Source of the DNA: Prorocentrum cordatum
Lineage: Eukaryota
NCBI GenBank assembly: GCA_963575745.1
Contig: CAUYUJ010000034.1
Coordinates: forward strand, 62,001-119,367
DNA: 57,367 bases
Direction: 5' to 3'
Part shown: positions 1 through 33,900 of the stretch, piece after piece
How the letters are laid out: each line of letters begins with the position of its first letter
How positions within the stretch are numbered: position 1 is the first letter of the stretch
Made by a program: the position numbers and the translations under genes
The notes under the pieces: model-generated
What the model was told of the DNA's origin: nothing
Database searches by the model: none
The model's input: the letters and a program-made list of their open reading frames with translations, nothing else

Positions 1-713
1 TCGTATGTGCTTGAATTGTGTCTCCAAGTAGGCTGACGATTCCCAAAAGTGTTAGCTAGCTGCAACTTGAGGGCCCCCATGGTCTTCAGAAAGGCCCCCG
101 AGTACATCTCCCGCATCCTGTTGGCTCTACTTTCGTCACCTCCACTAGACCTCCCCCTCTTACGTATAGGCCCATTCACCGCCTCCCCCGTAACCTCCAC
201 CCCATTGATCCTGTGGTGCGGGAAAACCTCCACGTTGGCGTCAGCCGAGATAACAACCTCCTCAATGTGAAATCGCTTTTTGGCCGCAGAGACATGTGCA
301 ACAAGATCCGATAACACGTCCGTATAGAGCTTGAAACTAGCGAGAAACCCTTCAGGAGAACGGCGTGCTTCACCCTGTGCACCCCGCTCAGACTCCTTAT
401 GAGGGAGATAGACAGAAACGAAGATGAGCTTGCGAAAGATCGCAATGACCCAGCGACGACCACACACAACATCGATAAGCAGATGTCTCCATACACCTCG
501 GCACAAGATGGCAGCCCGTCTCCCCGCGTTCTCCCCCTCATCTGCCGAGCGATGTATATCCCAACCCGCATCTGCAAGATCCAAGTCGTGTAAGAACTGG
601 CTCTCTTGGACCCCGACGATGGAAATCTTTAATTCGGCAATGTGATTCATGCACTCGGAGGTGTATCTTCCCAACCTCCGAACGTTCCAACCTCCAACAG
701 AAGCTGGGCACCG
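1..713 (-). CDS. LINE ORF2 N-terminal apurinic-like (APE/EEP) endonuclease domain, partial
   Basis: Manual translation of the minus strand from 713 is open to the window edge: RCPASVGGWNVRRL...IVGVQES...IFVSVYLPH...VVISADANV...LANTFGNRQPTW. These match the ordered APE motifs WNVxGL, LQE, SVYxP, GDxN and NTF..PTW. Not in the ORF track because it runs off the window. Confidence 0.88.
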
Positions 714-1826
714 TCACGAGCTGCTGTTCACCTGCCTCTCCCAAGTCTTGCAGTCCAGACCTGAATCGATGTGCTGGACCCGCTCGGCCACGAACTTCCA
801 TCCCACGGTATCCGTCCACGTACCTACACACACTTTATCACTCTGGCTATCCTTCTGCAGGTATGCCCAAGCCTTCGCAGGCCCTTCAGGCTCAAAAGTG
901 ATGAGAGCGGTGGCAACAGTCTTGAGCTTATGAAAGATCGCAGTCGCCTTGCGAGTCTCCCCAACTCGACGTCGGTCCTGTGGTGCAGGTTGGACAAACC
1001 AACCGAGGTGTCGATCTTTGTATGGTCCAAAACTGTTCTGGCAACCGACCAAATCAGGGCAAGAACTGGACCAGGCTGAGGCCCACTCGTTGCGTACTTC
1101 CCAGACCGTCCCTTTCGAAGTCCCTGGCATGAAGTATATGCGAAACTTGGTCACACCAAATCGATTGGAAGCGATATCCCCGTCCGTCCTACCCCTGTCG
1201 AAGATCTTAATAACGTCACTCTCCCGTGCTTGCGATAGTGTGTACAACTTACCTATCATGTTCCTAACCGTGGCGACCTGGATCTTGGCCTTATCTCGAG
1301 TTTCTACCTTTCGGGGGTCCTCTTGCGCGAAGCCGCCCACCTGGATCCAAGTCGGGACATGTGGTACAAAGGGCCTCTGGAAGTCAGCATTACGAGAGTC
1401 ACGAGTAGACGCACCTCCCAGAGATGATGAATCTGCCCAGGGACCCCTAGAGTTCATCTGAGCCTGAAGTGCTTTTATCTCTTTCGCCTGGGCCTCCTGA
1501 GCTGAACGAATCTCCTGCACCGACGAAGCAATAGGGGCAACCTGCTCTGATACCCTCGTTTGAATCTGCTCTTTGATGTCAACAGAGCTCTGCATAAGCA
1601 TCCTCTGCATATCTTCACGCATGGCATCGAACTGTGCACGGAGCATAGTGGCCAGATCTCCTGCTTCACCTCCTCCTCCTCCACTACTACCACTTCCATT
1701 CCCACTGACTGCCCCTCCTCCACCACCCTCGGCATCACCAAGAAGATGTCTATCTTCCAAGAGCTTCCTCTGTCGCTTCTCTCCGTTGCCCTCGGTTCCC
1801 ATATCATCATCAGAAGTCGGAACCAT
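714..1826 (-). CDS. LINE ORF1-like protein (Gly-rich linker, coiled coil, C-terminal globular region)
   Basis: Part of track ORF 714..2381. The first in-element ATG is at 1826 (MVPTSDDD). Heptad-like helix LATMLRAQFDAMREDMQ...QAKEIKALQAQM; position directly upstream of the APE domain. The frame stays open without ATG up to the element boundary and includes CPTC-x9-CWQC. The annotated start at 2381 lies in the flanking repeat. Confidence 0.7.
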   Translation of the reverse strand: MVPTSDDDMGTEGNGEKRQRKLLEDRHLLGDAEGGGGGAVSGNGSGSSGGGGGEAGDLATMLRAQFDAMREDMQRMLMQSSVDIKEQIQTRVSEQVAPIASSVQEIRSAQEAQAKEIKALQAQMNSRGPWADSSSLGGASTRDSRNADFQRPFVPHVPTWIQVGGFAQEDPRKVETRDKAKIQVATVRNMIGKLYTLSQARESDVIKIFDRGRTDGDIASNRFGVTKFRIYFMPGTSKGTVWEVRNEWASAWSSSCPDLVGCQNSFGPYKDRHLGWFVQPAPQDRRRVGETRKATAIFHKLKTVATALITFEPEGPAKAWAYLQKDSQSDKVCVGTWTDTVGWKFVAERVQHIDSGLDCKTWERQVNSSS

Positions 1827-2460
1827 CTTTCTCTTAAGATCACACTGCCAACAACTGGAAGTAGAATACCGATAAGCTCGACAAGTAGGGCACCTACTAG
1901 CCTCCAGATCACGATAGTGTTCGTCCTCGAGTTCTTCAAGAAACTTATCCCAACCCCGTAAAGGTGAATGTCGGTACGTGATGAGATCTGCTGCAACAAA
2001 AACGGTCAAAGTGTCCTTCTCAACTGCCAGAGCAAAACTGGTAAGTGCTGGGCTCCCAAGAGGATCACAAGCAAACAGCAAAGATACAAGTGCAACAAGT
2101 AGCGGCCGTGCGCCTCCAGCGGCACGTGTGGGCTCACCCAGTAACACAAGCAGAGAACAAATGCAGCGACCTATGCGCAGCACGTCCAGGAGGTTGCAGC
2201 CGACGAAGTACACGAACTTATGGGCCAGCGCGCACCCACGCGCGCCCACGGCCGCCCAGGGGGCAGCCTGAGGAGACAGGCTTGAGCCAGGGAGCTCGTA
2301 GAGCTCCTTCCACGCGTGAAAGTGCTCGGAGTCGAAGGAAGAGAGCTTCTGGAGGCATTTCTCAATAGAACGAACATTCAACGCCCCCGATGCTTCTAGA
2401 CTGTCTTCTGTACCAGCTCTGTAGCTCTCCTACAGCCCGAGTTACGTGCGTAAATCGACA

Positions 2461-3150
2461 GCACCTCTCAAGATGACTCGAACAATACGAACAGTTTGGC
2501 AAACCTAGCTCGAGTATTAGACCGAGTTCAGACCTCTGAATGCGACAGGCGGACGCGTCTGATGTCTCCGAATCGATTCCTGTGAGTACCAGCCCTGCAG
2601 CCCCCCTACAGCCCGAGTTAAGTGCAGAAAACCGACAGCACCTCGCAGGATGACTCGAACAATACAAATAGTTTCGCGAGCCTAGTTCGGGCAGCAGACC
2701 GAATTCCGAGCTCTGGATTCGACAGGCGATCGCGCCTGATGTCTCCGAATCGATGCATGTGACTACCAGCACTGTAGCCCCCCTGCAGCCCGAGTTAAGT
2801 ATAGAAAACCGACAGCACCTCTCAAGATGACTCGAACAATACGAATAGTTTCGCGAGTCTAGATCGGGCAGCAGACCGAGTTCAGAGCTCTGGATTCAAC
2901 AGACGAACGAGACTGATGATTCTGAATCGGTTTCTGTGAGAATCAGCTCTGTGGCTGTCATAAAGCTCGAGTTAAGTACAGAAGACCGAGAGCGCCTGTG
3001 AAGATGGCTCGAATAATACGAATAGGTTTGCGGACCTAGCTCGGCTAGCAGACCGAGTTCAGACCTCAGGCTGCAACAGACGAACGCGCCTGAGCCGTCC
3101 TCTATCTCGAGTTAAGTCAAATATACCGAGAGCGCCTATCAACATAACTC
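2461..3150. repeat. 177-bp tandem monomers (central repeats of a family A element)
   Basis: The AGACCGA(G/A)TTC landmark recurs near 2517, 2694, 2871 and 3048 (period 177). Confidence 0.9.
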
Positions 3151-3363
3151 GAAACGGCCGATCCCGCCCGTCTGCTTTTTCGCAGTAAAAGGTACCCGAT
3201 CGAGCTGAGATCAAGATGGCGAGCGGGAACAATATCGAATATCACGGGAAAAAACTAGAGCTCAAAAGAATTGAGGAATTTCGAGAACAAAATTGTTTGA
3301 ACCGACAAAAACTCGCCAAAAGGTCCGTCGAGATTTTTCTTGGCAACTAGCTCTCCAGCGCAA

Positions 3364-3786
3364 CTGGGAACCGGCGGTAAGCCGTCAACCAGGTTACCAC
3401 CGCCGGGCATCTCGTAGAGCTCTTTTCTTGCACAGGCTCTTCGGAACACATGAAAGAAGCTTCTACAGCAAGAGTTGACGATTTTTCAGTTTTCGTCCAC
3501 AGTCGGTTCCTCCAAGTGTTTTCATAGTAATACAGCCGCTAGAGTAAGAAATTTAACCAGCAGGTGGGTCATATCTGTCTACAGGGAATGAAAATCTCAC
3601 GTCTGAAAACGACTTTCAAAATTTTGACTTCTTTTTTTTTTAATACAAAAAAAAAAAAAAAAAAAAAAAAAAAAACACAACGACCCCAGGTTACTGCTAC
3701 ATTGTCTCTTTTCGTCGGGCCGGCCAACTAGCTGCACTCTGCGCCCGGATTCCTCTTAGCTCTTTAGCGAAGAGCTCTAGGAGGCA
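3364..3786 (-). mobile_element. Family C short element containing a T10/A29 tract
   Basis: CTGGGAACCGGCGG hairpin end at 3364; degenerate right subTIR AGCTCTAGGAGGCA at 3786, after which the host X cap resumes (TTACCCTTAAG). Confidence 0.7.
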
Positions 3787-5046
3787 TTACCCTTAAGCTT
3801 CCAGCCGTAACTTGCTAAGGGAAGCTCTACGAGTTATTCCTCTAGCTCATCGAGAACGAAGAGCTCTACGAGGTACGAAGAGCTCTGCGAGATACTCTTA
3901 AGCTTGCTGGCACCGGCGGTGAACCGTCAACCTGGTGACCGCCGGGAACTTCGTAGAGCTTCTCCCACGGGTGAGAGTGCTCAGAGTCGACGAAGAGAGC
4001 TTCTGGAGGCATTTCTCAAAAGAATTGAACATTATTTTTTTTCATGTCGACATGAAGTTGGTTCCCGCAAGTGCTTTGATAGTAAAAAGGCGCATACAGA
4101 GCTCATTCAAAGACGCAGAGGCCCTCACAGTCGTCTACAGCTGCGAAAAATCTGGTTTCTCAAAATGAATGGTCAAATATTGTTCACATCTCAGCAAAAC
4201 CGACCCCAAGTTATCACTTTGTCCATTCTGGCCAGATCGACCAACTGGGCGCCGGCGGTAAACCGTCAACCTTTCTTAGCGCCGGGAGACTCGTAGAGCT
4301 TCCTGACCATATATAATGTTAAAAAAATGAGAGAACGAATAATTCTTCAGCCCGAGCGATTCCAGACCTCTCGATGCAACAGCCGAACGTCCCTGATGCT
4401 TCTGGATCGTTTTCTGAGTACTAGCTCGTAGCTATCCCACGATCATATCGAGTCAGTTTCTGTGCGTATCAGCTCTGTAGCTATCCTACAGCCCGAATTA
4501 CGTGCGAAAATCGACAGCACCTCGCAAGACAACTCGATCAATACGAATAGGTTCGCGAACCAAGCTCGAGTACCAGACCGAGTTCAGACCTCTAAATGCG
4601 ACAGTCAGACGCGCCTGATGTCTCCAAATCGATTCCTGCGATAACCAGCCCTGTAGCCGCCCTGCAAGTGTAGAAAACCGACAGCGCCTCTATAACTCGA
4701 CCATACGAATAGTTTCGCGGACCTAGCTCGGGCAGCAGACCAAGTTCAGAGCTCTGGATGCAACAGACAAACGCGCCTCATCATTTTAAATCGGTTTCTG
4801 AAAGTATCAGCTCTGTAGCTGTCCTATAGCTCTCAAGTTAAGTTCAAAAACCGACAATGCCTGTCGAGATGACTGAAAACGGTCGATCCCGCCTGCCTGC
4901 TTTTTGGCAGTAAAAGAGACCCGATCGAGCTGAGATCAAGACGGCGAGCGGAAATAAGATCGAAAATAATGAAAAAAATACTAGAGCTCAAACAAATTGA
5001 GGAATTTCGAGAAAAAATGGGCGCCGGCGGTAAACCGTCAACCTGG

Positions 5047-5307
5047 TTTTCTTTGAGTTTGAGTCAGGGCGCGGACAGCTGTGACAGCTGAGCCCTAAGA
5101 CTCCCAAACGGAGCACAGGGTAGCTAGAGAAGGCACCTCTTATCATCACACTGCCGAGCCACTGAGGCATAGGCATCGGAATAGGATGCAGGAACAAGGA
5201 AAAGGATGCAACACAACATGTGAGAATGCAAAGGTGTTGGAACAGGTTAGAGAATGGTGTAAGAGCTGGTTGAAACGCTACCCAAAACGTGTTCCACGGC
5301 CAGGGAG
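5047..5307 (-). mobile_element. Short retroposed insert (SINE or 5'-truncated LINE 3' end) in a terminal hairpin
   Basis: Flanked by ACCTGG (5041-5046, 5308-5313); A-rich minus-strand tail CTCAAACTCAAAGAAAA; homologous to 8280-8564. Confidence 0.8.
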
Positions 5308-5737
5308 ACCTGGCTACCGCCGGGGACCTCGTAGAGCTCTTGTCTGGCCCAGCTCCTCAGAACACGTGAAGCAAGCTTAAGCGAGAGCCAAACAACTCAA
5401 AAAAAAATCGGTCGCGTAAAATGGTCTTGCGGCTTAGCTCGATGCCGAAGAGCTCTGCGAGGTATGTTCAACCGACCAAAAGTCGGCGAAGGTCGGTCGA
5501 GATTTTTCTTACCAACTGGCACCGGCGGTGAACCGTCAACCTGGTCTGCGGAGTCTGCGTAGGCCGATTCGAGCTCCCTGGAGAGCAGGCCAGGACACAG
5601 AGAAACCTAACCAGCGGAGCTGTACAGATATACACAGCGAAGCTGAAAAAGAAAGTACAAGTGCACAAACAGCGAAGCTGTAATGCACAAATATACAATA
5701 CACGAGAATGCAGCTCAAAGATTGTAAGATTGAAAGC

Positions 5738-5963
5738 AATGCGAGACCATGCAGTAACCACATATAGCGATTACCGTCTCAGCACCACTGAAAATAAAAG
5801 CAGTGAGAGACCATACAGTAACCACTGGTTTATACAGCGATTACCGTCTCAACACCACTGAGACAAACACAATACTAACAACTAAAATGACGAGTACACT
5901 TCAAAGTAATGCGAGACCATGCAGTAACCACATATAGCGATTACCGTCTCAGCACCACTGAAA
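5738..5963. repeat. Three ~55-bp direct repeats inside the 1.2-kb insert
   Basis: GAGACCATGCAGTAACCAC..ATAGCGATTACCGTCTCAGCACCACTGA at ~5738, ~5805 (variant) and ~5908. Confidence 0.85.
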
Positions 5964-6227
5964 GACCATGCACGTGAAACACAACGAATTTGCGGTCGAC
6001 TGTGCACAGAGTCAGGCAAGACACCCACCACTCTTTGAGCGGGAGTGGGCACATGCAAAACTCTTATTCCGAACAAAGTGAAGATCACGCGGAGCTCTTA
6101 TACCAACATACGCGCATGTCCGACACACACAGCATGGCAAGAGCCAACGCAAACACAAAGTCCGAAATATGTCATAACAACCCGCGGTAAGACAAGAGTC
6201 GTATGCTCACGTCAAATGTGTGATAAA

Positions 6228-6336
6228 TGAATGTCTGATAACGCACTCAAGAAGTAACTCTCGGAAAACTGAATGTCTGATAACGCACTCAGTATCTTGA
6301 ATCACCTGCATAACTGAATGTCTGATAACGCACTCA
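6228..6336. repeat. Three 22-bp direct repeats with 20- and 23-bp spacers
   Basis: TGAATGTCTGATAACGCACTCA at 6228, 6270 and 6315. Confidence 0.9.
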
Positions 6337-8279
6337 AGTATCTTGAACTCTGATCGATACGATTCAAAGAAAAAATGAAAACAGGCACGCCGATACAATG
6401 CAGAGAACCTCAATCTCAAGATACTCCAATGTCACAGAACTGTCAAAGTACCTCAATGTCAAAGAATACACACGTGTGCAAAAGCAATAATGGAGAAAGC
6501 GCAAGCAGGCAGCACAAACAAGTACAAAGCGACGACAGCGGCCTATGCGTTGAAGTCAGTCCCACTTCTGATGCCAAACAGAGCTGGCCTCCAGCATCTA
6601 TCGTCTGTCGGCCCAAGGAGAGAAGGTCGTCGCAGCCGACGAAGTACCCGCATGCATTGCACGGCCCGCCCGCGCGCACACGGCCGCCCAGGGGGCAGCC
6701 TGAGGAGACAGGCTTGAGGAAGCCCCCGACGGGCCAGGCCACCGCTGAGATCCCCGAGGAGGGACAGCAGCAACCTGGTCACCGCCGGGAACCTCGTAGA
6801 GCTCCTTTCACGCGCGAGAGTGCTAATAGTCGAAAGAGAGAGCTTATGGAGGCATTTCTCGAAAAATTGAACATTGATTTTTTTCATGTCGAGATGAAGT
6901 TGATTCCTCCAAGTGTTTTGATAGTAAATGTGTACCTACAGAGCTCATGTTAAGACGCAGAGGCCCTCATGGTCGTTTACAGGTGCGGAAAATCTGCTTT
7001 CTTAAAATGAATTGTCAAATATCTTTCAAGTCTGAGCAAAACCGACCCAAAGTCACCACTTTGTCCTTTCTGGTCGGGTCGACCAACTAGCGGCGCCGGA
7101 ATTCCTCTAGCTCATCGATAACTGGGCGCCGGTGGTAAACCGTCAACCTTTCTTACCGCCGGGGGCTCGTAGAGCTTCCTGACAATATCTAATGTGGAAA
7201 ATGCATAGAACGAATAATTTTTCAGCCCAAGTGATTTCAGACCTCTCGATGCAACAGCCGAACGCCCCCGATGCTTCTGGATTGTCTTCTTTACGAGCTC
7301 TGTATACAGCCCGAGCTACGTGCGTAAATCGCCAGCACCTCTCAAGATGACTAACAAAACAAATAGTTTGGCAACCCAGCTCGAGTATCAAACCGAGTTC
7401 AGACCTCTGAATGCGACAGGCGGACGCGTCTGATGTCTGCGAATCGACTCCTGTGATTACCAACCCTGCAGCCCCCTACAGCCCGAGTTACGTGCGTAAA
7501 CCGACAGCACCTCTCAGGATGACTCGAACAATACAGTGGTTTCGCGGACTAGTTCGGCCAGCAGACCGAGTTCCGAGCTCTGGATCGCGCCTGATGTCTT
7601 CAAATCGATTCCTGTGACCACCAGCACTGTAGCCTCAACCCAGCCCGAGTTGAGTGCAGAAAACCGAGAGCACTTCTCAAGATGACTCGAACAATACGAA
7701 CAGTTTCGCGATTCTAGATCGAGCAGCAGACCGAGTTCAGAGCTCTGGATTCAACAGACAAATGCGACTGATGATTTTGAATCGGTTTCTGTAAGTATCA
7801 GCTCTGCAGCTGTCCTATAGCCCGAGTTAAGTACAGAAAACCGAGAGCGTCTGTCAAGATGACCCAAATAATTAGCTTTGCAGACCTAGCTCGGCTAGCA
7901 GACCGACTTCAGACCTCTAGATTCAACAGACGAACGCGCCTGATCATTCTGAATCGATTAGCTGTGCTCACCAGCTCTGTAGCTGTCCTGAAGCTCGAGT
8001 TATCTTCAGAAAACCGTCATCGCGTGTCAAGATGGCTTGAAACAGCCGATCCCGCCTGCCTGCTTTTTGGCAGTAAAAAGTACCCGATCAAGCTGAGCGC
8101 AAAATGGCGAGCGGGAATAAGATCGAATATCATGGGAAAAATACTAGAGCTCAGACGAATTCTTGAATTTCGAGAACAAAATTTTCAACCGACCAAAACT
8201 CAGTCGAGATTTTTCTTGCCAACTAGCTCTCCAGCGCCCCGGAATTACTGGGAACCGGCGGTAAACCGTCAACCAAGTT

Positions 8280-8564
8280 TTTTTTGAGTTTGAGTCAGGG
8301 CGCGGACAGCTGTGACAGCTGAGCCCTAAGACTCCCAAACGGAGCACAGGGTAGCTGGAGAGGGCAACTCTTATCATCACACTGCCGAGCCACTGAGGCA
8401 TAGGCAACGGAATAGGATGCAGGAACAAGGAAAAGGATGCAATACAACATGTGAAAATGTAAAGGTGTTGGAGAGCTCCAAGCAAGATGAAATGAGTCAG
8501 CTGCTTGGATGAAAGATGCTACCCAAAATGTGCTCCACGGCCATACAGAGCCGTTGTGCTGCAA
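8280..8564 (-). mobile_element. Short retroposed insert (same family as 5047-5307) in a family C hairpin
   Basis: 11-bp TSD TCAACCAAGTT (8269-8279, 8565-8575); oligo(A) tail on the minus strand; 5' end differs from the 5047 copy. Confidence 0.85.
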
Positions 8565-11193
8565 TCAACCAAGTTACCGCCGGGCACCTCGTAGAGCTCT
8601 TTGCGCTCCTCGGAACACATAAGGGGAGCTTCTGAAGCGAGAGCCGAAAAACTCGAAAAATCATAATTTTTTCGGTTCTCATCCAAAGCCGGTTGCTCCA
8701 AGTGTTTGTATAGTAATACTGCACCTACAGACCTGAGAATTTGACTGGCAGACGCGGCATAACCCACTACAGGTGCGAAAAATCTGCTTTCTCAAAATGA
8801 ATTGTCAAATATCTTTCAAATCTTAGCAAAACCCACCCAAAGTTGTTACATTGTCTCTTTTCGTCGGGTCGGCCAACTGGGCGCCGGCGGTAAACCGTCA
8901 ACCTTCCTTACCGCCAGGGGACTCGTAGAGCTTCCTGACAATATATAATGTGGAAAAAATGCATAGAACGAATAGTTTTTCAGCCCAAGTGATTTCAGAC
9001 CTCTCGATGCAACAGCCGAACGCCCCCGATGCTTCTGGATTGTCTTCTTTGCGAGCTCTGTAGCTCTCCTACAGCCCGAGTTACGTACGTAAAGCACCTC
9101 TCAAGATCACTCTAACAAAACGAATACAACCCAGCTCGAGTATCAAACCGAATTCAGACTCCAACAGGCGGACGCGTCTGATGTCTGCGAATCGACTCCT
9201 GTGATTACCACCCCTGCAGCCCCCTACAGCTCTGGATTCGACAGGCAGACGCGCCTGATGTCTACAAATCGATTATTGTGACTACCAGCACTGTAGCCCC
9301 CCTACAAGCAAAGTTTAGTACAGAAAACCGACAGCACCTGACTCGAACAATACGAATAGTTTCGCAATTCTAGATCGGGCAGCAGACCGAGTTCAGAGCT
9401 CTGGATTCAACAGACAAATGCGACTGATGATTTTGAATCGGTTTCTGTAAGTATCAGCTATGTAGCTGTAGCTCGAGTTAAGTAAACAAAACTGAGAGCG
9501 TCTGTCAAGATGACTTGAATAATACAAATAGGTTTGCGGACCTAGCTCGGCTAGCAGACCGAGTTCAGACCTCTAGATTCAACAGGCGAACGCGCCTGAT
9601 CATTCTGAATCGATTAGCTGTGCTTACCAGCTCTGCAGCTGTCCTAAAGCTCGAGTTATCTTGAGAAAACCGTCATCGCGTGTCAAGATGACTTGAAACG
9701 GCCGATCCCGCCTGCCTGCTTTTTGGCAATAAAAGGTACCCGATCGAGCTGAGCTCAAAATGGCGAGCGGGAATAAGATCGAATATCATGGCAAAAAATA
9801 CTAGAGCTCAAACGAATTGTTGAATTCCGAGAACAAAACTGTGAGCCGGCGGTAAACCGTCAACCAGATTACCGCCGCGAGCCTCGTAGAGCTCTTTTCT
9901 TGCACGGCACTGCTAGAACACGTAGCAGGAGCTTTCCTGATACGCGAGCTGAAAACTCGAAGAAGTAAGTTTCTTTAGTTGTCACCCAACGACGGTTCCG
10001 CCAAGTGTTTTGATAGTAATGCTGCAGCTACGGACCTGAAAATTCATTGGAAGACGCGAAACAACCCACTACAGGTGCGAAAAATACCGGCTCTTAGAAC
10101 GAATGTTCAAATCTCTTACAAAGTTTGTCCAACCGACCCGAAGTTCGCACATTGTCCGTCGCAGCAGGGTCGGCCAACAGGGCGCCGGCGGTAAACCGTC
10201 AACCTTTCTTACCGCCGGGGACTCGTAGAGCTTCCTGACAATATATCATGTGGAAAAAGTGCAGAGAACGAATAGTTTTCAGCCCAAGCGATTTCAGACC
10301 TCTCGATGCAACAGCCGAACGCCCCCGATGCTTCTGGACTGTCTTCTTTACGAGCTCTGTAGCTCTCCTACAGCCCGCGTTACGTGCGTAAATCGACAGC
10401 ACCTGTCAAGATGACTCTGACAAAACGAACAGTTTGGGAACCCAGCTCGAGTATCAAACCGAGTTCAGACCTCTGAATGTGACAGGCGGACGCGTCTGAT
10501 GTCTGCAAATCGACTCCTGTGATTACCAGCCCTGCAGCCACCCTACAGCCCGAGTTACGTGCGTAAATCGACAGCACCTCTGATGATGACTCGAACAATA
10601 CAATAGTTTCGCGGACTAGTTCGGCCATAGCGAGTTCCGAGCTCTGGATTCGACAAGCAGACGCGCCTGATGTCTTCAAATCGATTCATGTGACCACCAA
10701 CTGTAGCCCCCCCCCCAGCCCGGGTTGAGTGCAGAAAACCGAGAGCACTTCTCAAGATAACTCGAACAATACGAATAGTTTCGTCTAGATCGAGCAGCAG
10801 ACCGAGTTCAGAGCTCTCGATTCAACAGACAAATGCGACTGATGATTCTGAATCAGTTTCTGTAAGTATCACCTCTGTAGCTGTCCTATAGCTCGAGTTA
10901 AGTACAGAAAACCAATAGCGCCTGTCAAGATGACCCGAATAATACGACTAGGTTTGCGGACCTAGCCTGGCTAGCAGACCGAGTTCAGACCTCTAGATTC
11001 AACAGGCGGACGCGCCTGATCATTCTGAATCGATTAGCTGTGCTTATCAGCTCTGTAGCTGTCCTGAAGCTCGAGTTATCTTCAGAAAACCGTCATCGCG
11101 TGTCAAGATGACTTGAAACGGCCGATCCCGCCTGCCTGCTTTTTGGCAGTAAAAGGTACCCGATCGAGCTGAGATCGAGATGGCGAGCGGGAA

Positions 11194-12395: not shown

Positions 12396-14308
12396 TAAGA
12401 TCGAATATCATGGGAAAAAATACTAGAGCTCAAACGAATTGTTGAATTTCGAGAACAAAATTTTTAACCGACCAAAAGTCAGCAAAAGGTCCGTCGAGAT
12501 TTTTCTTGCCAACTAGCTCTCCAGCGCCCCGGAATTACTCTTAAGCTTCCAGCAATAACTTGCTAAGGGAAGCTCTACGAGTTACTAGCTCCGCCCCGCG
12601 CCCTCTAGCGCATCGATGCCGAAGAGCTCTACGAGGCACTGGGCGCCGGCGGTAAACCGTCAACCTTCCTTACCGCCGGGGGACTCGTAGAGCTTCCTGA
12701 CATTGTATAATGTGGAAAAAAATCAAGAGAACGAATAGTTTTTCAGCCCAAGCGATTTCATACCTCTCGATGCAACAGCCGAACGCCCCCGATGCTTCTG
12801 GATTGTCTTCTTTGCGAGCTCTGTAGCTCTCCTACAGCCCGAGTTACGTGCGTACAAAACGAATAGTTTGGCAACCCAGCTCGCGTATCAAACCGAGTTC
12901 AGACCTCTGAATGCGACAGGCGGACGCGTCTGATGTCTACGAATCGACTCCTGTCACCACCAGCACTGTAGCCCACCTATAGACCGAGTTAAGTGCAGAA
13001 AACCGACAGCACCTCTCAAGATGACTCGAACAATACGAACATTTTCGCGATTCTCGATCAGGCAGCAGACCCAGTTCAGAGCTCTGGATTCAACAGACAA
13101 ACGCGACTGATGATTCTGAATCGATTTCTGTAAGTATCAGCTCTGTAGCTGTCCTATAGCTCGAGTTCAGTACAGAAAACCGAGAGCGCCCTGTCAAGAT
13201 GACATAATACGAATAGGTCTGCGGAGCTAGCTCGGCAAGCAGACCGAGTTCAGACCTCTGGATGCAACAGACGAACCGCGTCTGATCATTCTGAATCGAT
13301 GAGGTGTGCTGACCAGCTGTCCTATATCTCGAGTTCAGTCCAATATACCGACAGCCCATATCAAGATGACTCGAAACGGCCGATCCCGCCGGGACACTTT
13401 TTGAATAAAAAGGACCCGATCGAGCTGAGATCAAGATGGCGAGGGGAAATAACATCGAATGTCACGAGAAAAAATACTAGAGCTCTAACGAATGTTCAAT
13501 TTTTGTTGAGAACAAAATTTTGAACCGACCAAAAGTCACCTATAGGTCAGGCGAGATTTTTCTTGCCAACTAGCTCTCTAGCGCCCCGGAATTACTCTTA
13601 AGCTTCCAGCCATAACTTGCTAAGGGAAGCTCTACGAGTTACTAGCTCTCCAGCGCCCCGGAATTACTCTTAAGCTTCCAGCAATAACTTGCTAAGGCAA
13701 GCTCTACAAGTTACTGGGCGCCGGCGGTAAACCGTCAACCTTGGTTACCGCCGGAGGAGCTGCCTCACAATAACAATGTGAAAAGAAGATTGATGAGAGC
13801 GAATAATTTTTCAGCCCAAGCGATTTCAGACCTCTCGATGCAACAGCCGAACGCCCCCGACGCTTCTGCATTATCTTCTCTACGGGCTCTGAAGCTCTCC
13901 TACCGCCGGAGTAAGGTGCGTAAATCGACAGCACCTCTCAAGATGAATCGACACAATACGAATAGTTTGGCAAACCTAGCTCGAGTATCGGACCGATTCC
14001 AGACCTCTCAATGCGACAGAAGGACGCGTCTGATGTCTCTGAATCGATTTCTGTGATTACCAGCCCTGCAGCCCCTCTAGAGCCCGAGTTTAGTGCAGAA
14101 AACGGACAGCACCTCTCAGGGTGACTCGAACAATAGGAATAGTTTTGCGGAGCTAATTCGAGCAGCAGACAGTTCCGAGCTCTGAATTCGACAGGCGGAC
14201 GCACCTGATGTCTCCAGATCGATTCCCGTGACTGCAAGTACTGTAGCTCCCCTACAGCGCGAGCTGAATGAAGACCCAACAGCACCTCGCAAGCTGACTC
14301 GTATAATG

Positions 14309-16208
14309 CTTGGTAGCGTCCAAAACCCGGAGAGCGACTGGCGCCGGCGGTGAACCGTCGGCGGTCACCGCCGGGAGCCTCGTAGAGCTCCTAGCACGCG
14401 TAAGAGTGCTAAGGATCAAACGAGAGGGCTTCTGGAAGCATTTCTCGAAAAAAGAGCAAACATCATTTTTGTCATGTCGACATAAAGTTGGTTGCGCCAA
14501 GTGTTTTGACAGTAAAATTGCATCTAGAGAGCTCATATTCAGACGCTCAGGCCCTCATAGTCATCTACAGGTGCGAAAAATCTGCTTTCTCAAAATAAGG
14601 GTCAAAGATCTTTAAAATATTTGCAAAACTACCCAAAAGTTGTCACTTTGTCCTTTCTGGCCGGGTCGGCCAACTGGGCGCCGGCGGTAAACCGTCAACC
14701 TTTGTTACCGCCGGGGGACTCGTAGAGCTTCCTGAGAACATATAATGTCGAAAAAATTACACTGAAAAAATAGTTTCTTAGCCCAAGCAATTTCAGAACT
14801 CTCGGATGGAACAGCCGAACGCCCCCGATGCTTCTGGATTGTCTTCTGTACGATCTCTCTAGGTCCTACAGCCTGAGTTACGTGCGTAAATCGACAGCAC
14901 CTCTCAATATGATTCGAACAATTCGAATAGTTTGGCAAACCTAGCTCGAGTATCAGACCGAGTTCAGACCTCTGCATGCGACAGGCACACGCGTCTGATG
15001 TCTCTGAATCGATTCCTGTGATTACCAGCTCTGCAGCCCCCCTACAGCCCGAGTCAAGTGCAGGAAACCGACAGCACCTCTCAGGATGACTCGAACAATA
15101 CGAATAGTTTGGCAGACCTAGTTCGGGCAGCAGACAGAGTTCGGAGCTCTCGATCCAAAATGCACACGCGCCTGATGTCTCTGAATCGATTCCACTCATT
15201 ACCAGCCATGCAGCCCCCCGACACCCCGAGTTAAGTGCAGAGAACGGACAGCATCTCTCAAGATGACTCGAACAATACGAATAGTTTTGCAATTCTAGAT
15301 CCGGCAGCAGACCGAGTTCAGAGCTCTGGATCCAACAGACAACGGCCACTGATGATTCTGAATCAGATTCTGTACGCATCAGCTCTGTAGCTGTCCTGTA
15401 GCTCGAGTTAAGTTCAGAAAACCGAGAGCGTCTGTCAAGATGACTCGAATAATACAAATAGGTTTGCGGACCTAGCTCGGCTAGCAGACCGAGTTCAGAC
15501 CTCTGGGTTCAACAGGCGAACGCGCCTGATCATTCTGAATCGATTAGTTGTGCTTACCCGCTCTGTAGCTGCCCTGAAGCTCGAATTATCTCGAGAAAAC
15601 CGTCACCGCGTGACAGGATGACCCAAAACGGGCGATCCCGCCGCAGTGCTTTTTGGCAGTAAAAGGTACCCGATCGAGCTGAGATCAAGACGGCGAGCGG
15701 GAATAAGATCGAATATCACGGGAAAAAATACTAGAGCTCTAACGAATGGTTGAATTCCGAGAACGAAATTTTCAACCGACCAAAAGTCATCAAAATGACC
15801 GTCGAGATTCTTCTTGCCAACTAGCTCTCCAGCGCCCCGGAATTACTTAAGCTTCCAGCAAAAACATGCTAAGGGAAGCTCTACGAGTTACTGCTCCACC
15901 CCGCGCCGGAATTCCTCTAGCTCATCGTCGATGTCAAAGAGCTCTACGAGGTAACGGAGAGCGAAGAAACCCTTTGGAGACGGAAAATGTTTCCTGGAGA
16001 GCTCTGGGAAGCTTCCGGAACGCTTTCACGCGTGCCTGCATGCGTGCAGGCACGCGTGGAAGCTTGCCGGAAGCTCTCCCGGACCCGTTGCCGGGCCAGG
16101 CGAGTCTCTGCGAGGACTGTGGACCGCCGTGGAGGAGCTCCTGGCGGGCACCACCACCGTCGGGCTTCTAATCTTGAACCCTTTAGCTCTCGGCGGGCTC
16201 TCCGGGAA
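14309..16208. mobile_element. Family E GC-rich palindromic element, split by nested B (14338-15953) and A (14674-15890) elements
   Basis: Left end CTTGGTAGCGTCCAAAACCC, right end CTCTCCGGGAA. The outer flanks rejoin a 177-bp monomer (GACTCGTATAATG | CAAATAATTTCG). Confidence 0.65.
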
Positions 16209-16522
16209 CAAATAATTTCGTGATTCTAGATCGGGCAGCAAACCGAGTTGAGAGCTCTGCATTCAACGAACGAACGCGACTGATGATTCTGAATCGATTT
16301 CTGTAAGCATCAGCTCTGTAGCTGTCCTATAGCTCGAGTTCACTACAGAAAACCGAGAGCCTGTTAAGATGACTCGAATAATACGAATAGGTTTGCGGGC
16401 CTAGCTCGGCTAGCAGACCAAGTTCACACCTCTGGATCCAACAGACGAACGCGTCTGATCGTTCTGTTTGGAATAGGTGTGCTTACCAGCTCTGTAGCTG
16501 CCCTAGAGCTCGAGTTAGGTAC

Positions 16523-17410: not shown

Positions 17411-18014
17411 TCCAAAACCCGGAGAGCAAAGAGAACAAACACACACCGGAAAATCTTCCTGGCAAGCCCACGGAAGCTCGCGTGAAGCTCTTCTGGGGCT
17501 CTGGGGGGCTCCCCGGCAGCGCTTCCGAAGCGCTGCCAGAAACGCTTCCACGCGCGCCTGCACGCGAGCGGGCACGCGTGGAAGCTTGCCGGAAGCTCTC
17601 CCGGACACGTTGCCGGCTCAAACGAGCCGCTGCTGGGATTCTGGAGCGGCGGAGATGCGCTGCTGGCGGGCACCACCACCGTCCGGCTTCTAATCTCAAA
17701 CCCTTTAGCTCTCAGCGAGCTCTCCGGGAATAAAATACCGACAGCGCGCATGAAGATGACACGAGAAATATTCCCTGGAGAGAGCTGGGGGGCCTCCCCG
17801 AAGCGCTTCGGAAGCGCTGCCAGGAACGCTTCCACGCGTGCCTGCACGAGTGCAGGCACGCGTGGACGCATGCCGGAAGCGCTCCCGGACCCGCTGCGAC
17901 CCCACACGAACTGCTGCGAGGATTCCGGAGCGGCGGAGATGCGCTGCTGGCGGGCACCACCACCGTCCAGCTTCTAATCGAAAACCCTCTAGCTCTCAGA
18001 GAGCCCTCCGGGAA
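17411..18014. repeat. Two tandem ~300-bp family E units
   Basis: Each runs from TTCCTGG to CTCCGGGAA around a CCACGCG(C/T)GCCTGCACG..GGCACGCGTGGA quasi-palindrome. Confidence 0.75.
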
Positions 18015-30983: not shown

Positions 30984-33900
30984 CTGGCGCCGGCGGTGAA
31001 CCGTCAACCTGGTCACCGCCGGGAACCTCGTAGAGCTCCTTTCACGCGTAAGAGTGCTCAGAGTCGAAAGAGAGAGCTTCTGGAAGCATTTCTCGAGGAA
31101 GGGAAACATTGATTTGTTTCGTGTCGACATGAAGTTGCATCCGCCAAGTGTTTTGATAGTAAAGGGGCGCCTACAGAGCTGATGCTAAGACAGAGAGGCC
31201 CTCATATTCGTTTACAGGTGCGAAAAATCTGCTTTCTAAAAATGAATTGTCAAATATCTTTGAAAAATTGCAAAACCACCCAAACTGGGCGCCGGCGGTA
31301 AACCATCAACCTTTCTTACCGCCGGGGGACTCATAGAGCTTCCTAACAGTATATAGTGTGGGAAAAAAATCAGAGAACGACTAGTTTTCAGCCAAAGCGA
31401 TTTCAAACCTCTCAAGATGACTCTAACAAAAAAACAAACAGTTTCGCAACCCAGTTCAAGTATCAGACCGAGTTCAGACCTCTCAATGCGACAGGCGGAC
31501 GCATCTGATGTCTGCGAATCGACTCATGTGATTACCAGCCCTGCAGCCCCCCTACAGCCCGAGTTAAGTGCAGAAAACCGACAGCATCTCTCAGGATGAC
31601 TCGAATAATATAATAGTTTCGCAGACCTGTTTCGAGCAGCAGACCAAGTTCTGAGCTCTCGAATCGACCAACGAACGCGCCTGATGTGTGCAAATCGATT
31701 TCTATGACCCGCAGCACTGTAGCCCTCCCCAGCACGAGTTGAGTGCGGAAAATTGAGAGCACTTTTCACGATGATTCGGACAATACGAATAGTTTCGCGA
31801 ACCTAGCTCGGGCAGCAGGCCGAGTTCAGAGCTCTCGATACAACAGACAACTGCGCCCGATAATTCCCAATCGATTTATGTGACATAGGCTCTGTAGCTG
31901 CCCTACAGCTCGAGTTAAATACAGAAAAACGAAGGCGTTTGTCAAGATGACTCGAATAATACGAATAGATTTGCGGACCTAGCTCGGCTAGCAGACCGAG
32001 TTCAGACCTCTCGAGTCAAGAGGCGAACGCGCCTGATGATTCCGAATGCGATGGATGTGCTTACCAGCTCTGTAGCTGCTCTGCAGCTCGAATGAAGTAC
32101 AAAATACCCACCACGCGTATCAAGTTGACTCGAATAATACGAATAGGTTTGCGGACCTAGCTCGGCTGGCAGACCGAGTTCAGACCTATGGATTCAACAG
32201 GCGAACGCGACTGATGATTCTGAGTGCGATAGGTGTGCTTACCAGCACTGTAGCTGCCCTACAGCTCGAGCTAAGTAGAAAATACCGACAACGCGTATCA
32301 AGTTCACTCGAATAATACGAATAAGTTTGCGGACCTAGCTCGGCTAGCAGACCGGGTTCAGACCTATGGATTCAACAGGCGAACGCGCCTGATGATTATG
32401 AGTGCGATAGGTGTGCTTACCAGCACTGTAGCTGCCCTACAGCTCGAGTTAAGTAGAAAATACCGACAACGCGTATGAAGATGACTCGAAACAGCCGATC
32501 CCGCCGGGACGCTTTTTGGCAGTAAAAGGTACCCGATCGAGCTGACATCAAGATGGCGAGCGGGAATAAGATCGAATTTGACGGGAAAAATACTAGAGCT
32601 CAAACGAATTGTTGAATTTTGAAAACAAAACTGGAACCGGCGGTAAACCGTCAGCCTGGTTACCGCCGGAAACCTCCTAGAGCTCTTTTCTTGCACAGCG
32701 ATCGTCGGAACACATAGAAGAAGCTTCTGAGGCGAGAAACAAAAAACTCGAAAAAACGTGTTTTCTGTTTTCATACAACCTCGGTTCCTCCAAGTGTTTT
32801 GATAATAATAATACTGCACCTATGCTACCAACATTCTGACTCATAGTGAATATGTTTTGACCTCTGAATGCGACAAGCGGACGCGTCTGATGTCTGCGAA
32901 TCGACTCCTGTCATTACCAGCCCCGCAGCCCCCCTACAGCCCGAGGTCAGTGCAGAAAACCGACAGCATCTCTCAGGATGACTCGAACAATACAACACTA
33001 TCGCGAACCTAGTTCGGGAAGCAGCTGGATTCGACAGGCGGACGCGCATGATCTCTTTAAATCGATTCATATGACAACCAGCACTGTAGCCCCCTCTCAG
33101 CGCAAGTTGAGTGAAGAAAACCGAGAGCACTTCTAAAGATGACTCAAGCAATACGAATAATTTCGTGATTCTAGATCGGGCAGAAGACCAAGTCGAGAGC
33201 TCTGGATTCGACAGACAAACGCAACTCACAATTCTGAAGCAGTTTCTGTAAATATCAGCTCTGTAGCTGTCTTAGAGCTCGAGTTAAGTACAGAAAACCG
33301 AGAGTTTCTGTGAAGATGACTCGAATAATACGAATCGGTTTCCAGACCTAGCTCGGCTCACAGACCGAGTTCAGACCTCTCGATTCAACAGGCGAACGCG
33401 CCTAATCATTCTGCAACGATTACTGTGCTTACCAGCTCTGTAGATGTCTTAAAGTTCGAGTTATGTTGAGAAAACCGTCAGCGCGTATCAAGATGACTCG
33501 AAACGGCCGATCCCGCCAGAGTGCTTTTTGGCCTTGAAAGTTACCGATCGAGCTGAGATCGAAATAGCGAGCGGAAATAAGATCCAATAAAAAATACTAG
33601 AGCTCTAACGAATGGTCTAATTTCGAGAAGAAAATTTTCAATCGACCAAAAGTCAGCAAACGTTCCGTCGAGATTTTTCTTGCCAGCTAGCTCTGCAGCG
33701 CGCCGGAATTACTCTTAAGCTTCCAGCAACTAGCTTAGAGAAGCTCTACGAGTCAGTTATCATATTGTCCTCTCTGGTCGGATCGGCCAACTAGCTCCAC
33801 CCCGGGCTCGGATTCCTCTAGCTCATCGATGCCAGAGAGCTCTACGAGGTATTTTCAACCGACCAAAAGTCATCAAAGGGTCCGTCGAGATTTTCCTTGC

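Follow-up and report, generated by a model that had tools for sequence, protein, structure and literature searches.

A LINE family that probably integrates at one hairpin position of an abundant modular repeat

The window analysed here, a stretch of DNA of 57,367 nucleotides, begins with part of a retrotransposon whose 5' end lies against a repeat rich in hairpins, and some of these hairpins are filled by other inserts. The locus raises the question of whether the retrotransposon selects its insertion site, and which of the inserts belong to it. We consider it likely that positions 1 to ~2290 hold the 5' half of an endonuclease/reverse-transcriptase LINE whose family integrates at one hairpin position of a very abundant modular repeat.

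The LINE and its relatives

The initial annotation had identified the beginning of the window as a LINE, and this identity was borne out by the succession of an ORF1, an in-frame UGA and the start of an ORF2 with an AP-endonuclease fold.

1..2286, minus strand: 5' part of the LINE (leader, ORF1 and ORF2 start), from its open reading frames and homology to the related loci L001-L003; the 3' part lies beyond position 1
3..713, minus strand: ORF2 start with an AP-endonuclease-type (EEP) domain, 237 codons, open to the window edge
714..716, minus strand: in-frame UGA at the ORF1/ORF2 boundary, in a context (UGA CGG UGC CCA GC) identical in the window and L001-L003
717..1826, minus strand: ORF1, with its first in-frame ATG at 1826 and the frame open upstream to 2429

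Three relatives of the LINE family were found (L001-L003). All are metagenome contigs, and their ends may be artefacts of the assembly. The assignment of the ORF2 start as an endonuclease was settled by the fold search, the sequence searches having returned nothing or marginal hits: Pfam gave no family at E<=1, the ORF2 start alone found no match in a word-index search for longer proteins or in a PDB sequence search, and the profile of alignment A1 returned only marginal ExoIII-type hits from the PDB (E 0.13-0.34). Foldseek with the ORF2 start (AF2 model with pLDDT 74 and pTM 0.78) retrieved AP endonucleases (E 1e-5 to 1e-4), the fourth-ranked hit being the TRAS1 endonuclease domain, and ESM Atlas Exo_endo_phos clusters scored 0.95. 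The EEP motifs WN, LQE, YLPH, DANVE, NTFG..PTW, DY and SDHA are present (alignment A1).

The LINE continues past position 1, and the window itself shows no reverse transcriptase. The only full-length relative, L002, encodes a complete ORF2 of 1379 aa with both endonuclease and reverse transcriptase; the N-terminus of this protein shares 52% identity with the ORF2 start of the window (E 8e-82). The match of the L002 ORF2 to RVT_1 (E 1.5e-5 to 8.5e-5) falls below the Pfam cut-off (25.3 bits vs 29.6); human LINE-1 ORF2p is also matched (8c8j, E 2.2e-6, residues 376-751), Atlas RVT_1 clusters were returned at 0.95, and the C-terminus gave a weak hit to the RNase H-like RVT_3 (E 0.04). ORF1 is 44-55% identical to five homologues (E 1e-79 to 1e-120, alignment A2), viral_contigs contained none of its relatives, and Pfam gave no family for it at E<=0.1. 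The UGA region ranks among the two stretches with the highest nucleotide conservation (84% over 98 nt). In three poly(A) metatranscriptome contig sets, which derive from mixed samples and are no measure of expression, no contig reached >=90% likeness to window positions 1-2340.

The hairpin target and its fillings

Of the 56 hairpin loops in the window, 3 are filled, leaving at least 53 hairpins empty. An example of an empty hairpin and the features of the three fillings are as follows.

30990..31038, plus strand: empty target hairpin, with a 10-bp stem (CCGGCGGTGA/TCACCGCCGG), the loop ACCGTCAACCTGG and then the exit motif
5049..5308, minus strand: 5'-truncated retrocopy of poly(A) type at the same hairpin position, with a target duplication ACCTGG[T/C]T of ~7 bp
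8280..8565, minus strand: second 5'-truncated retrocopy of poly(A) type, with T6 on the plus strand and a 10-bp duplication, CAACCAAGTT, at 8270-8279 and 8566-8575
5547..6770, minus strand: non-autonomous derivative of the LINE family (1.2 kb), with a LINE-type leader at ~6598-6770, a LINE-type 3' end at ~5547-5700 and an unrelated middle
5537..5546, plus strand: left copy of its target-site duplication CAACCTGGTC, from comparison with empty sites
6771..6780, plus strand: right copy of the duplication CAACCTGGTC, 10 bp

The stem of the hairpin covaries. In a set of 63 empty hairpins (53 from the window and 10 from two other loci, L006 and L009), 91.3% of cells pair and 3 of the 10 pairs carry compensatory double changes (19 cells); the covariation score of 0.166, compared to 0.081 in shuffles, was reached by none of 500 shuffles, and slid controls gave at most 0.048. 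L006 and L009 have the same loop and compensated stems in AT-richer surroundings, with no LINE nearby. The hairpin pattern was absent from viral_contigs, and five of its seven hits in genome_contigs (L004, L005, L007, L008 and L010) were set aside as chance matches, being bacterial and lacking the right arm after the 20-mer in the surrounding sequence. Within the window, inverted copies of GAGCTCTACGAGGT / ACCTCGTAGAGCTC flank many hairpins and internal tandem-repeat arrays are present.

All three fillings lie at the same nucleotide, just left of the ACCGCC of the right arm, with their inserts on the minus strand and target duplications of 7-10 bp that match the local host variant. All three also bear hallmarks of target-primed reverse transcription, with a duplication in every case and 5' truncation in the poly(A) copies, and the LINE family would integrate by this route. 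Its endonuclease would nick the plus strand between the base after CAACC[T/A][G/A]GT and the right arm's ACCGCC, the freed 3' OH would prime cDNA synthesis from the 3' end of the RNA, and a second nick 7-10 bp leftward would give rise to the duplication seen in the derivative and poly(A) copies.

The insertion of the LINE copy in the window is visible on its 5' side alone, with a target deletion and no duplication. The junction comprises two features.

2287..2294, minus strand: ambiguous junction bases CCAGGGAG, either a right-arm remnant, the 5' end of the element or a DinoSL 3'-end relic (compared with L002 1-50)
2295..2363, plus strand: host-repeat flank at the hairpin exit, with CTCGTAGAGCTCC at its start, from its 85% identity to 6784-6860 and a motif census

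The proposal that this junction resembles a hairpin exit proved correct: 2286-2363 aligns with 6784-6860 at 85%, and GGGAGCTCGTAGAGCTCC at 2290-2307 is one of 47 copies of the exit motif in the window (<=3 mismatches), of which 0.04 are expected by chance and 46 lie on the plus strand. The proposed "hairpin remnant" beside the LINE is reduced to at most ~8 ambiguous bases, as the loop and most of the right arm are missing. About 13-22 nt of CAACCTGGTCACCGCCGGGAAC are absent from the target, and CCAGGGAG is the only part of the junction that could derive from the arm. Near-identical bases (CCAGGAG) occur in L002, where 7 further bases separate them from the exit motif; CCAGGGAG may therefore belong to the element or be a spliced-leader relic, rather than stem from the hairpin. 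The window copy has an imprecise 5' junction, having lost the first 50-110 nt of the leader along with the ~13-22 nt of target.

The exit motif stands in the same orientation 5' of the window LINE, L002 (GCAAGGAGCTCTACGAGG) and L001 (CTCTACGAGGTCCCCGGC). In L001, and possibly in the window, the element directly adjoins ...CCCGGC. The shared flank bears on whether the LINE has any site specificity, the alternative being a chance landing in a repeat-dense region with a flank likeness that reflects repeat abundance. Hairpins and their exits do make up ~5% of the window, and the one visible junction of the window copy is imprecise; however, two relatives from other organisms carry the exit motif directly 5' in the same orientation, and the derivative, which has the 3' end of the family, shares its insertion nucleotide with two other retrocopies, making a chance landing scarcely credible. 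Comparison of these flanks supports the view that the LINE family targets this hairpin. On the 3' side, the hairpin sequence expected left of a LINE 3' end is ...CCGGCGGT[G/A]AACCGTCAACC[T/A]GGT[C/T]. The LINE 3'-end pattern was absent from viral_contigs and genome_contigs; the 3' flank of L002 retains CAACCAGGT and then diverges from the hairpin left arm, and neither this flank nor the far 5' flank of L001 is canonical hairpin. The 3' flank that the initial annotation had predicted for the LINE is the exact 3' flank of the 1.2-kb derivative.

A different origin of the repeat itself was also considered, in which the hairpin modules are the constant 3' ends (minus strand) of retro-elements of the same system, the arrays are 5'-truncated copies inserted into each other's tails, and the LINE would be targeting elements that depend on it. 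To the left of ACTGG(G)CG plus hairpin, the sequence differs between sites and breaks off at many different places in the same background modules, a minus-strand reading gives a constant 3' end next to a variable 5' start, and 55 of the 56 hairpins share one orientation, all as such an origin would have it. The 3' end of the LINE family itself (L002 and the 1.2-kb insert) nevertheless has no such hairpin, the compensated hairpins of L006 and L009 occur in quite different surroundings with no LINE near, and neither poly(A) nor a tail repeat follows the module. We regard this origin as clearly improbable and retain the reading of the hairpin as a target site in a host repeat.

The two poly(A) copies are 96% identical over 195 bp, and an 891-nt RNA contig extends beyond 5302; both derive, with 5' truncation, from a poly(A) RNA of 891 nt or more. 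Apart from the flanks they share no sequence with the LINE family, their sole tie to it being the common insertion site.

The 1.2-kb derivative, the shared leader and spliced-leader traces

The link between the LINE and the 1.2-kb insert was first drawn from two short matches, and both stand. The 40-bp identity was confirmed at all 40 of 40 bases (2247-2286 = 6679-6718) and sits in a 94-bp alignment of 84% (2193-2286 vs 6629-6718, BLAST E 2e-21 to 4e-19). The 16-mer GCAGCCGACGAAGTAC occurs only at 2196 and 6632 (<=2 mismatches), with 0.03 occurrences expected by chance and two or more matches in 0 of 100 shuffles. A blastn search of LINE positions 1-2290 against the remaining window returned nothing besides the insert's leader block.

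2193..2286, minus strand: shared GC-rich 5' leader block, 84% identical to 6629-6718 and 82-84% to L001 270-359 and L002 3-122 (alignment A3)

The leader of the insert is common to the window LINE, L001, L002 and L003 (83% over 139 bp to L001 256-393, E 2e-29), and its 3' end is common to L002 (80% over 110 bp to L002 5624-5729, E 3e-17). The two 3' ends align with a mean column identity of 81% (alignment A5) and form the same two stem-loops, with one compensatory pair; on the plus strand, the insert's 3' region (5547-5650) begins with a TGCGGAGTCTGCG-like sequence. The ~900 nt in the middle have no match in the LINE loci. Since both ends match the LINE family, the insert is a non-autonomous, internally replaced derivative. 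It retains ~135-175 nt of the LINE leader and at least 100 nt of the 3' terminal region around a replaced coding body, and it would be copied in trans by the LINE proteins. The claim that the LINE is the autonomous partner of the hairpin inserts thus holds for the 1.2-kb insert, through the shared 5' leader and the 3' end in common with L002, and is not supported for the two short inserts, which show no similarity beyond the flanks. On this sequence evidence, the window LINE is supported as an autonomous-type relative of the 1.2-kb insert.

The sequence of the derivative recurs in DNA contigs and, in 3 studies, in contigs of poly(A) RNA; the pieces are near-identical (0-10 differences each) and come from four studies, through three RNA runs and a further run whose type is uncertain. 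RNA contigs of two studies stop exactly at 6780 (X15 record 16 and X17 record 24), a weak hint that this position is an RNA 5' end. In one RNA contig, a T-run connects a hairpin left arm (4273) with 5989, marking a further copy. These contigs bear on whether the insert is instead a chimera that arose once, when template switching or recombination joined a LINE 5' piece to an unrelated RNA, in which case there would be no propagating family and the shared block would be uninformative on partnership. The unmatched ~900-nt middle would suit such an event, as would the loose end at 6655 of an RNA contig that shares only 6655-6780 and then differs, and the copy that apparently ends with the T-run near 5989. 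The latter two observations suggest that the insert family is mosaic. A single accident is nonetheless very improbable given that both ends of the insert match the LINE family, that a clean 10-bp duplication flanks it at the canonical site, and that near-identical pieces occur in contigs from four studies. The reading as a propagating LINE derivative is therefore preferred.

The shared 94-bp block probably represents the conserved start of the LINE family's 5' untranslated region. Nucleotide identity of the leader is 82-84%, compared to 73-77% for the BLAST-detectable segments of ORF1, and its conservation sets in exactly at the step from ...CTCAAG to CCTGTC. This onset may mark the start of the mature RNA, acting as a trans-splice acceptor and/or as a cis-element for transcription or RNP formation. 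The block may be an internal promoter or a structured leader, as the initial annotation suggested. RNAalifold on 4 leaders found compensatory change in 0 of 22 predicted pairs, and the folding z-score of the insert leader was only -2.39. Rfam returned nothing at gathering thresholds across the whole window and, at E<=10 on 1-2500 and 5000-8700, unrelated sub-threshold hits only, with no match to an HDV-like ribozyme model; a tRNA search found none.

Traces of a spliced leader are found 5' of the LINE leader. L001 carries two exact tandem copies of TTGGCTCAAG, the final 10 nt of the 22-nt dinoflagellate spliced leader (0.02 expected; 0 of 200 shuffles), directly 5' of 18 nt of the host hairpin exit and the LINE leader. 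From this layout, the RNA concerned would have begun upstream in the target repeat and received its 5' end by processing; the arrangement of L001 points to one LINE RNA or more with a start in the host repeat and a trans-spliced 5' end. In the window copy, TGGCTCAAG on the minus strand (2281-2289) fits the DinoSL 3' end, but these 9 nt are all that fit and 6 of the 9 are native to the family leader. The window LINE otherwise offers only CTGGCTCAAG (1 mismatch), compared to 4.45 such chance matches expected per window.

A bolder reading combines three proposals that, taken jointly, we consider unlikely. The LINE endonuclease may read DNA structure as well as sequence, at the loop edge of an extruded hairpin. 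The hairpin may be the working terminus of another mobile element, hence its compensated stem and a loop that does not vary across organisms, with the LINE parasitising a hairpin essential to a second transposon. Finally, the RNAs would begin exactly at the nick site and carry the 10-nt 'duplication', which would guide precise second-strand priming, with spliced-leader trans-splicing as another route to the 5' end.

Comparison with known systems

Target-specific LINEs are natural models for programmable site-directed DNA insertion, and each new pair of target and endonuclease informs how AP-type endonucleases read DNA. The combination of an invariant loop with a covarying stem offers a clean test of sequence against structure recognition. 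Should the host be a dinoflagellate, the LINE, its non-autonomous partner, the defined target and the spliced-leader-tagged copies would together form a concrete and datable retrotransposon system in a lineage of huge, poorly understood genomes, with bearing on which machinery makes the very numerous retrogenes of dinoflagellates.

The host repeat recalls the termini of Helitrons and Helentrons. According to the excerpt available of PMC5148889, Helitron1 elements have 5'-TC and 3'-CTRR ends and carry a hairpin at a distance of 10-12 nt from the latter, Helitron2/Helentron elements have asymmetric terminal inverted repeats and terminal hairpins, and autonomous copies encode a Rep-Hel gene. Similarly, the host repeat has a short GC-rich hairpin near a constant end, head-to-tail arrays in one orientation, inverted repeats and internal tandem repeats. 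It differs in the variable sequence upstream of the hairpin; neither the window nor L006 or L009 contained a Rep/helicase gene, and 5'-TC or 3'-CTRR ends and an insertion site between A and T or at TT could not be defined. The repeat was therefore not classed as a Helitron, its searches having revealed neither the defining ends nor the gene. Titles and abstract openings of the literature searched held nothing relevant on Helitron-like hairpin repeats in dinoflagellates, and no site-specific LINE of dinoflagellates was apparent in them.

In the ingi/RIME and L1Tc/NARTc pairs of trypanosomatids, a short non-autonomous element combines the 5' leader and the 3' end of its autonomous LINE but no longer carries the coding body. 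The 1.2-kb element likewise has LINE 5' and 3' ends, with a leader conserved across the family; its middle, however, is foreign sequence instead of the product of a simple deletion and, unlike leaders of the L1Tc/NARTc type, the one described here had no Rfam ribozyme match at E<=10. R2-type elements are co-transcribed with their target and processed at the 5' end. The L001 RNA is similar in that it would have begun in the target repeat and been processed at its 5' end, although the processing here would be spliced-leader trans-splicing and not cleavage by a self-cleaving ribozyme. DinoSL-tagged retrogenes provide a further comparison system (excerpt of PMC6050394).

The closest behaviour is that of the R1 and Tx1 clades. 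As a point of reference, R1 occupies 28S rDNA, TRAS and SART occupy telomeric repeats, and Tx1L resides inside another transposon. Both clades contain target-specific APE-type LINEs (excerpt of PMC4640811). In common with them, the LINE family has an APE-type endonuclease followed by a reverse transcriptase (the latter in L002), and its insertions fall at a single nucleotide of a multicopy repeat, all oriented alike and accompanied by short duplications or deletions of the target. This likeness rests on behaviour, the clade signals here being the LINE-1 ORF2p likeness and the weak RVT_3 hit. The family differs from these clades in that ORF1 and ORF2 share one frame with a UGA between them, and in that its target is the loop edge of a covarying hairpin within a repeat, and not an RNA gene, a telomere or a microsatellite. 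The window LINE probably adds to the target-specific LINEs, in what is probably a dinoflagellate.

The hairpin and the insertions at its loop edge

The window looks eukaryotic (G+C ~50%) and is filled by short arrays of a 177-bp satellite, and a hairpin motif recurs between the arrays. At ≤1 mismatch, the loop core AACCGTCAACC is present in 56 copies, 55 of them on the plus strand; a typical copy reads CCGGCGGTGA-ACCGTCAACCTGG-TCACCGCCGG and is followed by the exit motif, (G)AACCTCGTAGAGCTC. An alignment of 63 empty hairpins was scored over a 10-bp stem; the window supplied 53 of them, and the other 10 come from L006 and L009, two unrelated short contigs recovered by a genome_contigs pattern scan. 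Within this alignment, 91.3% of stem cells form standard pairs, both-side changes occur in three of the ten stem pairs (19 cells), and the covariation score is 0.166 vs 0.081 when shuffled (0.166 reached in 0/500 shuffles) and ≤0.048 for slid partner columns. L006 (5397 bp) and L009 (1801 bp) have a G+C of 41-43%, and their 10 copies of the loop carry compensated stems, mostly CGAGCGG/CCGCTCG vs CCGGCGG/CCGCCGG, around an unchanged loop, AACCGTCAACC[T/A][G/A]GTT. No convincing ORF was seen in these two contigs, which were binned in a bacterial (Nitrospinota) MAG and are probably mis-binned eukaryotic repeat DNA; they also contain ACTCG[T/A]AGAGC modules. Since the stems are compensated and the loop is constant in both the window and these contigs, the LINE target is a structured, conserved element whose loop does not vary in sequence.

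Several other repeat features of the window were observed. Left of ACTGG(G)CG and the hairpin, background modules break off at many points (for example at 12646, 26710, 29956 and 39142), but what lies to the right does not vary. The hairpin module thus acts as the fixed end of a unit with a variably truncated neighbour, suggesting that the host repeat is itself mobile. Modules of 61 and 72 bp (13569-13715, 19186-19331, 53011-53135 and elsewhere) start with ACTAGCTC, include a small hairpin of their own, and end with GCTCTACGAG[G/T]T, which inverts and complements the exit motif that follows the main hairpin. The satellite forms arrays of 2-6 copies between hairpin modules (2410-3093 and ~25 further arrays), and its summed contig depth in X1, a contig run of uncertain type, is thousands-fold above that of the LINE, depth not being equal to copy number. 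A GC-rich block (≤60% G+C; 15960-16110 and 17501-18014) comprises a 284-bp unit x1.8 with long palindromes of the type GGAAGCGCTTCC / GCCTGCACG..CGTGCAGGC. An unrelated ~1-kb insert lies inside a satellite array at 16520-17480, and a 211-bp unit x2 (97% identity), unrelated to the satellite, lies at 54665-55082, toward the right end of the window, where G+C is lower.

Inserts at the hairpin and their duplications
5547-6770, minus strand, 1.2-kb insert: left duplication CAACCTGGTC at 5537-5546, right copy at 6771-6780
8280-8565, minus strand, poly(A) insert: left duplication CAACCAAGTT at 8270-8279, right copy at 8566-8575
~5049-5308, minus strand, poly(A) insert: left duplication ACCTGGTT, right copy ACCTGGCT

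Relative to the plus-strand hairpin, each of the three inserts lies on the minus strand, and its right duplication copy stops immediately before the right-arm ACCGCC. The duplications match the local host-hairpin variant and are therefore true target duplications, not brought by the element. From the geometry of these duplications we infer two nicks: the first would fall on the plus strand between ...GGT[C/T] and ACCGCC, and the second on the opposite strand, 7-10 bp leftward. The T-runs at 5049 and 8280 are consistent with cDNA primed at the first nick on a poly(A) tail. Additionally, 19 X1 contigs join 5542/5546 straight to 6778-6788 in three joints, which are empty paralogous sites, and one RNA contig that connects 4273, within the left arm of a hairpin, to 5989 via GGTTTTTTGCGGAC is evidence of another poly(A)-tailed copy at a hairpin; all RNA and DNA run evidence consists of contigs from mixed samples.

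The LINE and its relatives

Coding regions of the window LINE and of a complete relative
2429-717, minus strand: ORF1 frame, first in-frame ATG at 1826, UGA at 716-714
Past the UGA, minus strand: ORF2 start, same frame as ORF1, 237 codons without a stop up to the window edge
L002, 5754 bp, metagenome locus: complete element, ORF1 157-1443, in-frame stop as in the window, ORF2 1444-5583 (1379 aa)

Pfam gave no family at E≤1 for the ORF2 start, nor did a PDB sequence search give a match at E≤10. An exhaustive phmmer search returned 13 relatives, in whose alignment the EEP motif series is visible, and the AlphaFold model built from that alignment (pLDDT 74, pTM 0.78) matches AP endonucleases (E 1e-5 to 1e-4), with the structurally similar endonuclease domain of TRAS1, a telomere-specific LINE, at rank 4. 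ORF1 has five homologues at 44-55% identity, and a metagenome scan with their alignment yielded three loci (L001, L002 and L003). The N-terminus of L002 ORF2 is 52% identical to the window ORF2 (E 8e-82), its central part has an RVT_1 match (E 1.5e-5) that stays under the Pfam cut-off, residues 376-751 match human LINE-1 ORF2p (E 2.2e-6), and the C-terminus has a weak RNase H-like RVT_3 match (E 0.04). The window element can be accepted as the LINE that the initial annotation named because its ORF2 start is endonuclease-like and homologous to an ORF2 with an RVT_1 match; its own reverse transcriptase lies outside the window. A single UGA separates the same-frame ORF1 and ORF2 in the window (714-716, minus strand), L001 (~1678-1680) and L002 (1441-1443), and its context, UGA CGG UGC CCA GC, is identical in the window and three relatives within an 84%-conserved 98-nt stretch. 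Judged from sequence, this looks like programmed stop-codon read-through, which would yield an ORF1-ORF2 fusion.

LINE 5' junctions, sense strand
Window LINE: GGAGCTCTACGAG-CTCCCTGG-CTCAAGCCTGTC...
L002: GCAAGGAGCTCTACGAGG-CTCAAGG-CTCCTGG-CTCAAGCCTGTC...
L001: ...TTGGCTCAAGGTTGGCTCAAG-CTCTACGAGGTCCCCGGC-CCTGTGCCC..., then 110 more leader bases, ...CCTCAAGCCTGTC

The exit motif is directly upstream, in the same orientation, in all three copies. ORF1 of the window is only ~55% identical to those of L001 and L002, and the copies are therefore not orthologous; the shared exit flank at three related loci is the strongest evidence that hairpin targeting is a trait of the family, beyond the window copy alone. 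The exit resemblance noticed at the right flank of the window LINE is in fact an exact exit motif (2290-2307; 47 copies at ≤3 mismatches, expectation 0.04), and 2286-2363 is 85% identical to 6784-6860, the flank right of the 1.2-kb insert. The loop is retained in none of the three copies, and the window LINE is missing ~13-22 nt of target as well as the initial 50-110 nt of leader. The hairpin remnant said to abut the LINE amounts to no more than a few bases, if any, since three readings fit CTCCCTGG: a right-arm outer end that has mutated (similar to GAGGCTCCCGGC at ~14370), element sequence (CTCCTGG is apart from the exit motif in L002, and CCTCCTGGCT occurs in the L001 leader) or, joined to the CTCAAG after it, the final 9 nt of the dinoflagellate spliced leader. 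The string predicted for the LINE 3' flank is found, base for base, beside the 3' end of the 1.2-kb derivative. Beyond its 3' end, L002 reads ACCTGGTTG (CAACCAGGT when taken from the opposite strand) and then CTCAAGGCCTTGCCGTGGGAAGCTC, not the left arm; this could be the 5' end of an earlier retrocopy at the same site or an assembly join.

The shared leader block, the 1.2-kb insert and the poly(A) inserts

The 40-bp identity proposed between the LINE and the 1.2-kb insert is exact (2247-2286 = 6679-6718, 40/40 bases) and extends to 94 bp at 84% (2193-2286 vs 6629-6718); the linking 16-mer is found in the window only at 2196 and 6632 (chance expectation 0.03), and the rest of the window has no other match to the LINE. 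In a five-sequence leader alignment, conservation begins exactly at CTCAAG|CCTGTC and extends ~100-135 nt; upstream of this point, L001 and the 1.2-kb insert are unlike in length and have little sequence in common. Window and metagenome loci agree at 82-84% of nucleotides in the block, which, with the ORF1-stop/ORF2-start region (84% over 98 nt), is the best-conserved stretch, BLAST-detectable ORF1 segments reaching 73-77%. The non-autonomous element keeps the block as well, as does at least one other RNA species (common over 6655-6780, then diverging, with a loose end at 6655). Because of this conservation and retention, the block is a constrained cis-element starting the 5' UTR, with a promoter, a trans-splice acceptor region and an RNP or translation signal as candidate functions. 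No Rfam family matched the block, the four leaders compared gave no covariation, and folding is modestly better than for shuffles (z -2.39). The leaders of L001 and L002 (L002 ~145-160) and L003 (~60-80) contain GGT[G/A]ACCAGGT[C/T], a near copy of the target around the nick, ~110 nt downstream of the block start; it is absent from the window LINE and the 1.2-kb insert.

The 1.2-kb insert resembles the family at both ends. Its leader matches L001 256-393 (139 bp, 83%, E 2e-29), and the comparison of 5547-5700 with a LINE 3' UTR was positive via L002 rather than the window copy, at the extreme 3' end of that full-length element (5624-5729; 110 bp, 80%, E 3e-17). Pairwise alignment stretches this 3' likeness to ~165 nt (81% mean column identity), and both 3' ends are predicted to form the same pair of stem-loops; in the second stem-loop, the inner stem differs by one compensatory pair, GCUCU/GGAGC vs GUUCC/GGAAC, which is suggestive from two sequences only. 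The ~900-nt middle has no match in the LINE loci. With family ends and an unmatched middle, the insert is a non-autonomous member of the LINE family, with the layout expected of an internally replaced and trans-dependent element. Three ~60-nt unit copies and a 45-bp unit x2.5 (5738-5960, 6228-6338) were observed in the middle, and RNA contigs carry small insertions there (AC after 6122, AAAG after 6365), so the 1.2-kb family has variants. RNA contigs from two studies stop exactly at 6780, both the outer edge of the duplication and the predicted nick site, a weak hint that RNAs of this family start there, carrying the 10-nt duplication; base-pairing of these 10 nt with the second-strand primer could then make the 5' junctions precise.

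The poly(A) inserts share 96% identity over 195 bp of their 3' parts, and comparison of 5047-5307 and 8280-8564 with the LINE found nothing common to the LINE loci beyond the flank. Their sequence is the 3' part of longer contigs (≤891 nt) in three poly(A) metatranscriptome runs, which led to the rejection of the inserts as SINEs. Since these contigs continue past 5302, with bases resembling the 5' part of the second copy, the inserts are 5'-truncated retrocopies of a longer poly(A) RNA. Given the identical insertion point, the same endonuclease or one related to it is the likely agent, on circumstantial grounds.

Putative spliced-leader relics and the kind of system

The 22-nt dinoflagellate spliced leader is given as DCCGUAGCCAUUUUGGCUCAAG in PMC6050394. 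In L001, the final 10 nt of this leader occur twice in tandem without mismatch (136-145 and 147-156; expectation 0.02, with ≥2 matches in 0/200 shuffles); host exit and arm (18 nt) come immediately after, and the LINE leader next. The simplest reading is a four-step history in which an ancestor resident in the hairpin would have been transcribed from upstream, its RNA trans-spliced at the AG before CTCTACGAG, and the trans-spliced RNA retrotransposed, more than once. This reading points to a dinoflagellate-type host for the relatives, and L001 shows that productive RNA is possible without an internal promoter. The window LINE has one 1-mismatch spliced-leader match vs 4.45 expected per window, which is weak, its junction position being suggestive.

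Combined, these results bear out part of the initial annotation's view of the LINE as the autonomous partner of the hairpin-targeting inserts: the LINE family targets the hairpin and has both ends in common with the 1.2-kb insert, but the poly(A) inserts are unlike it. A target-specific LINE with a non-autonomous partner is a system of a known kind, the window LINE being seen at its 5' junction only. What is new is the target, at the edge of the loop in a conserved hairpin whose stem covaries, and probably also the host lineage for a target-specific LINE.
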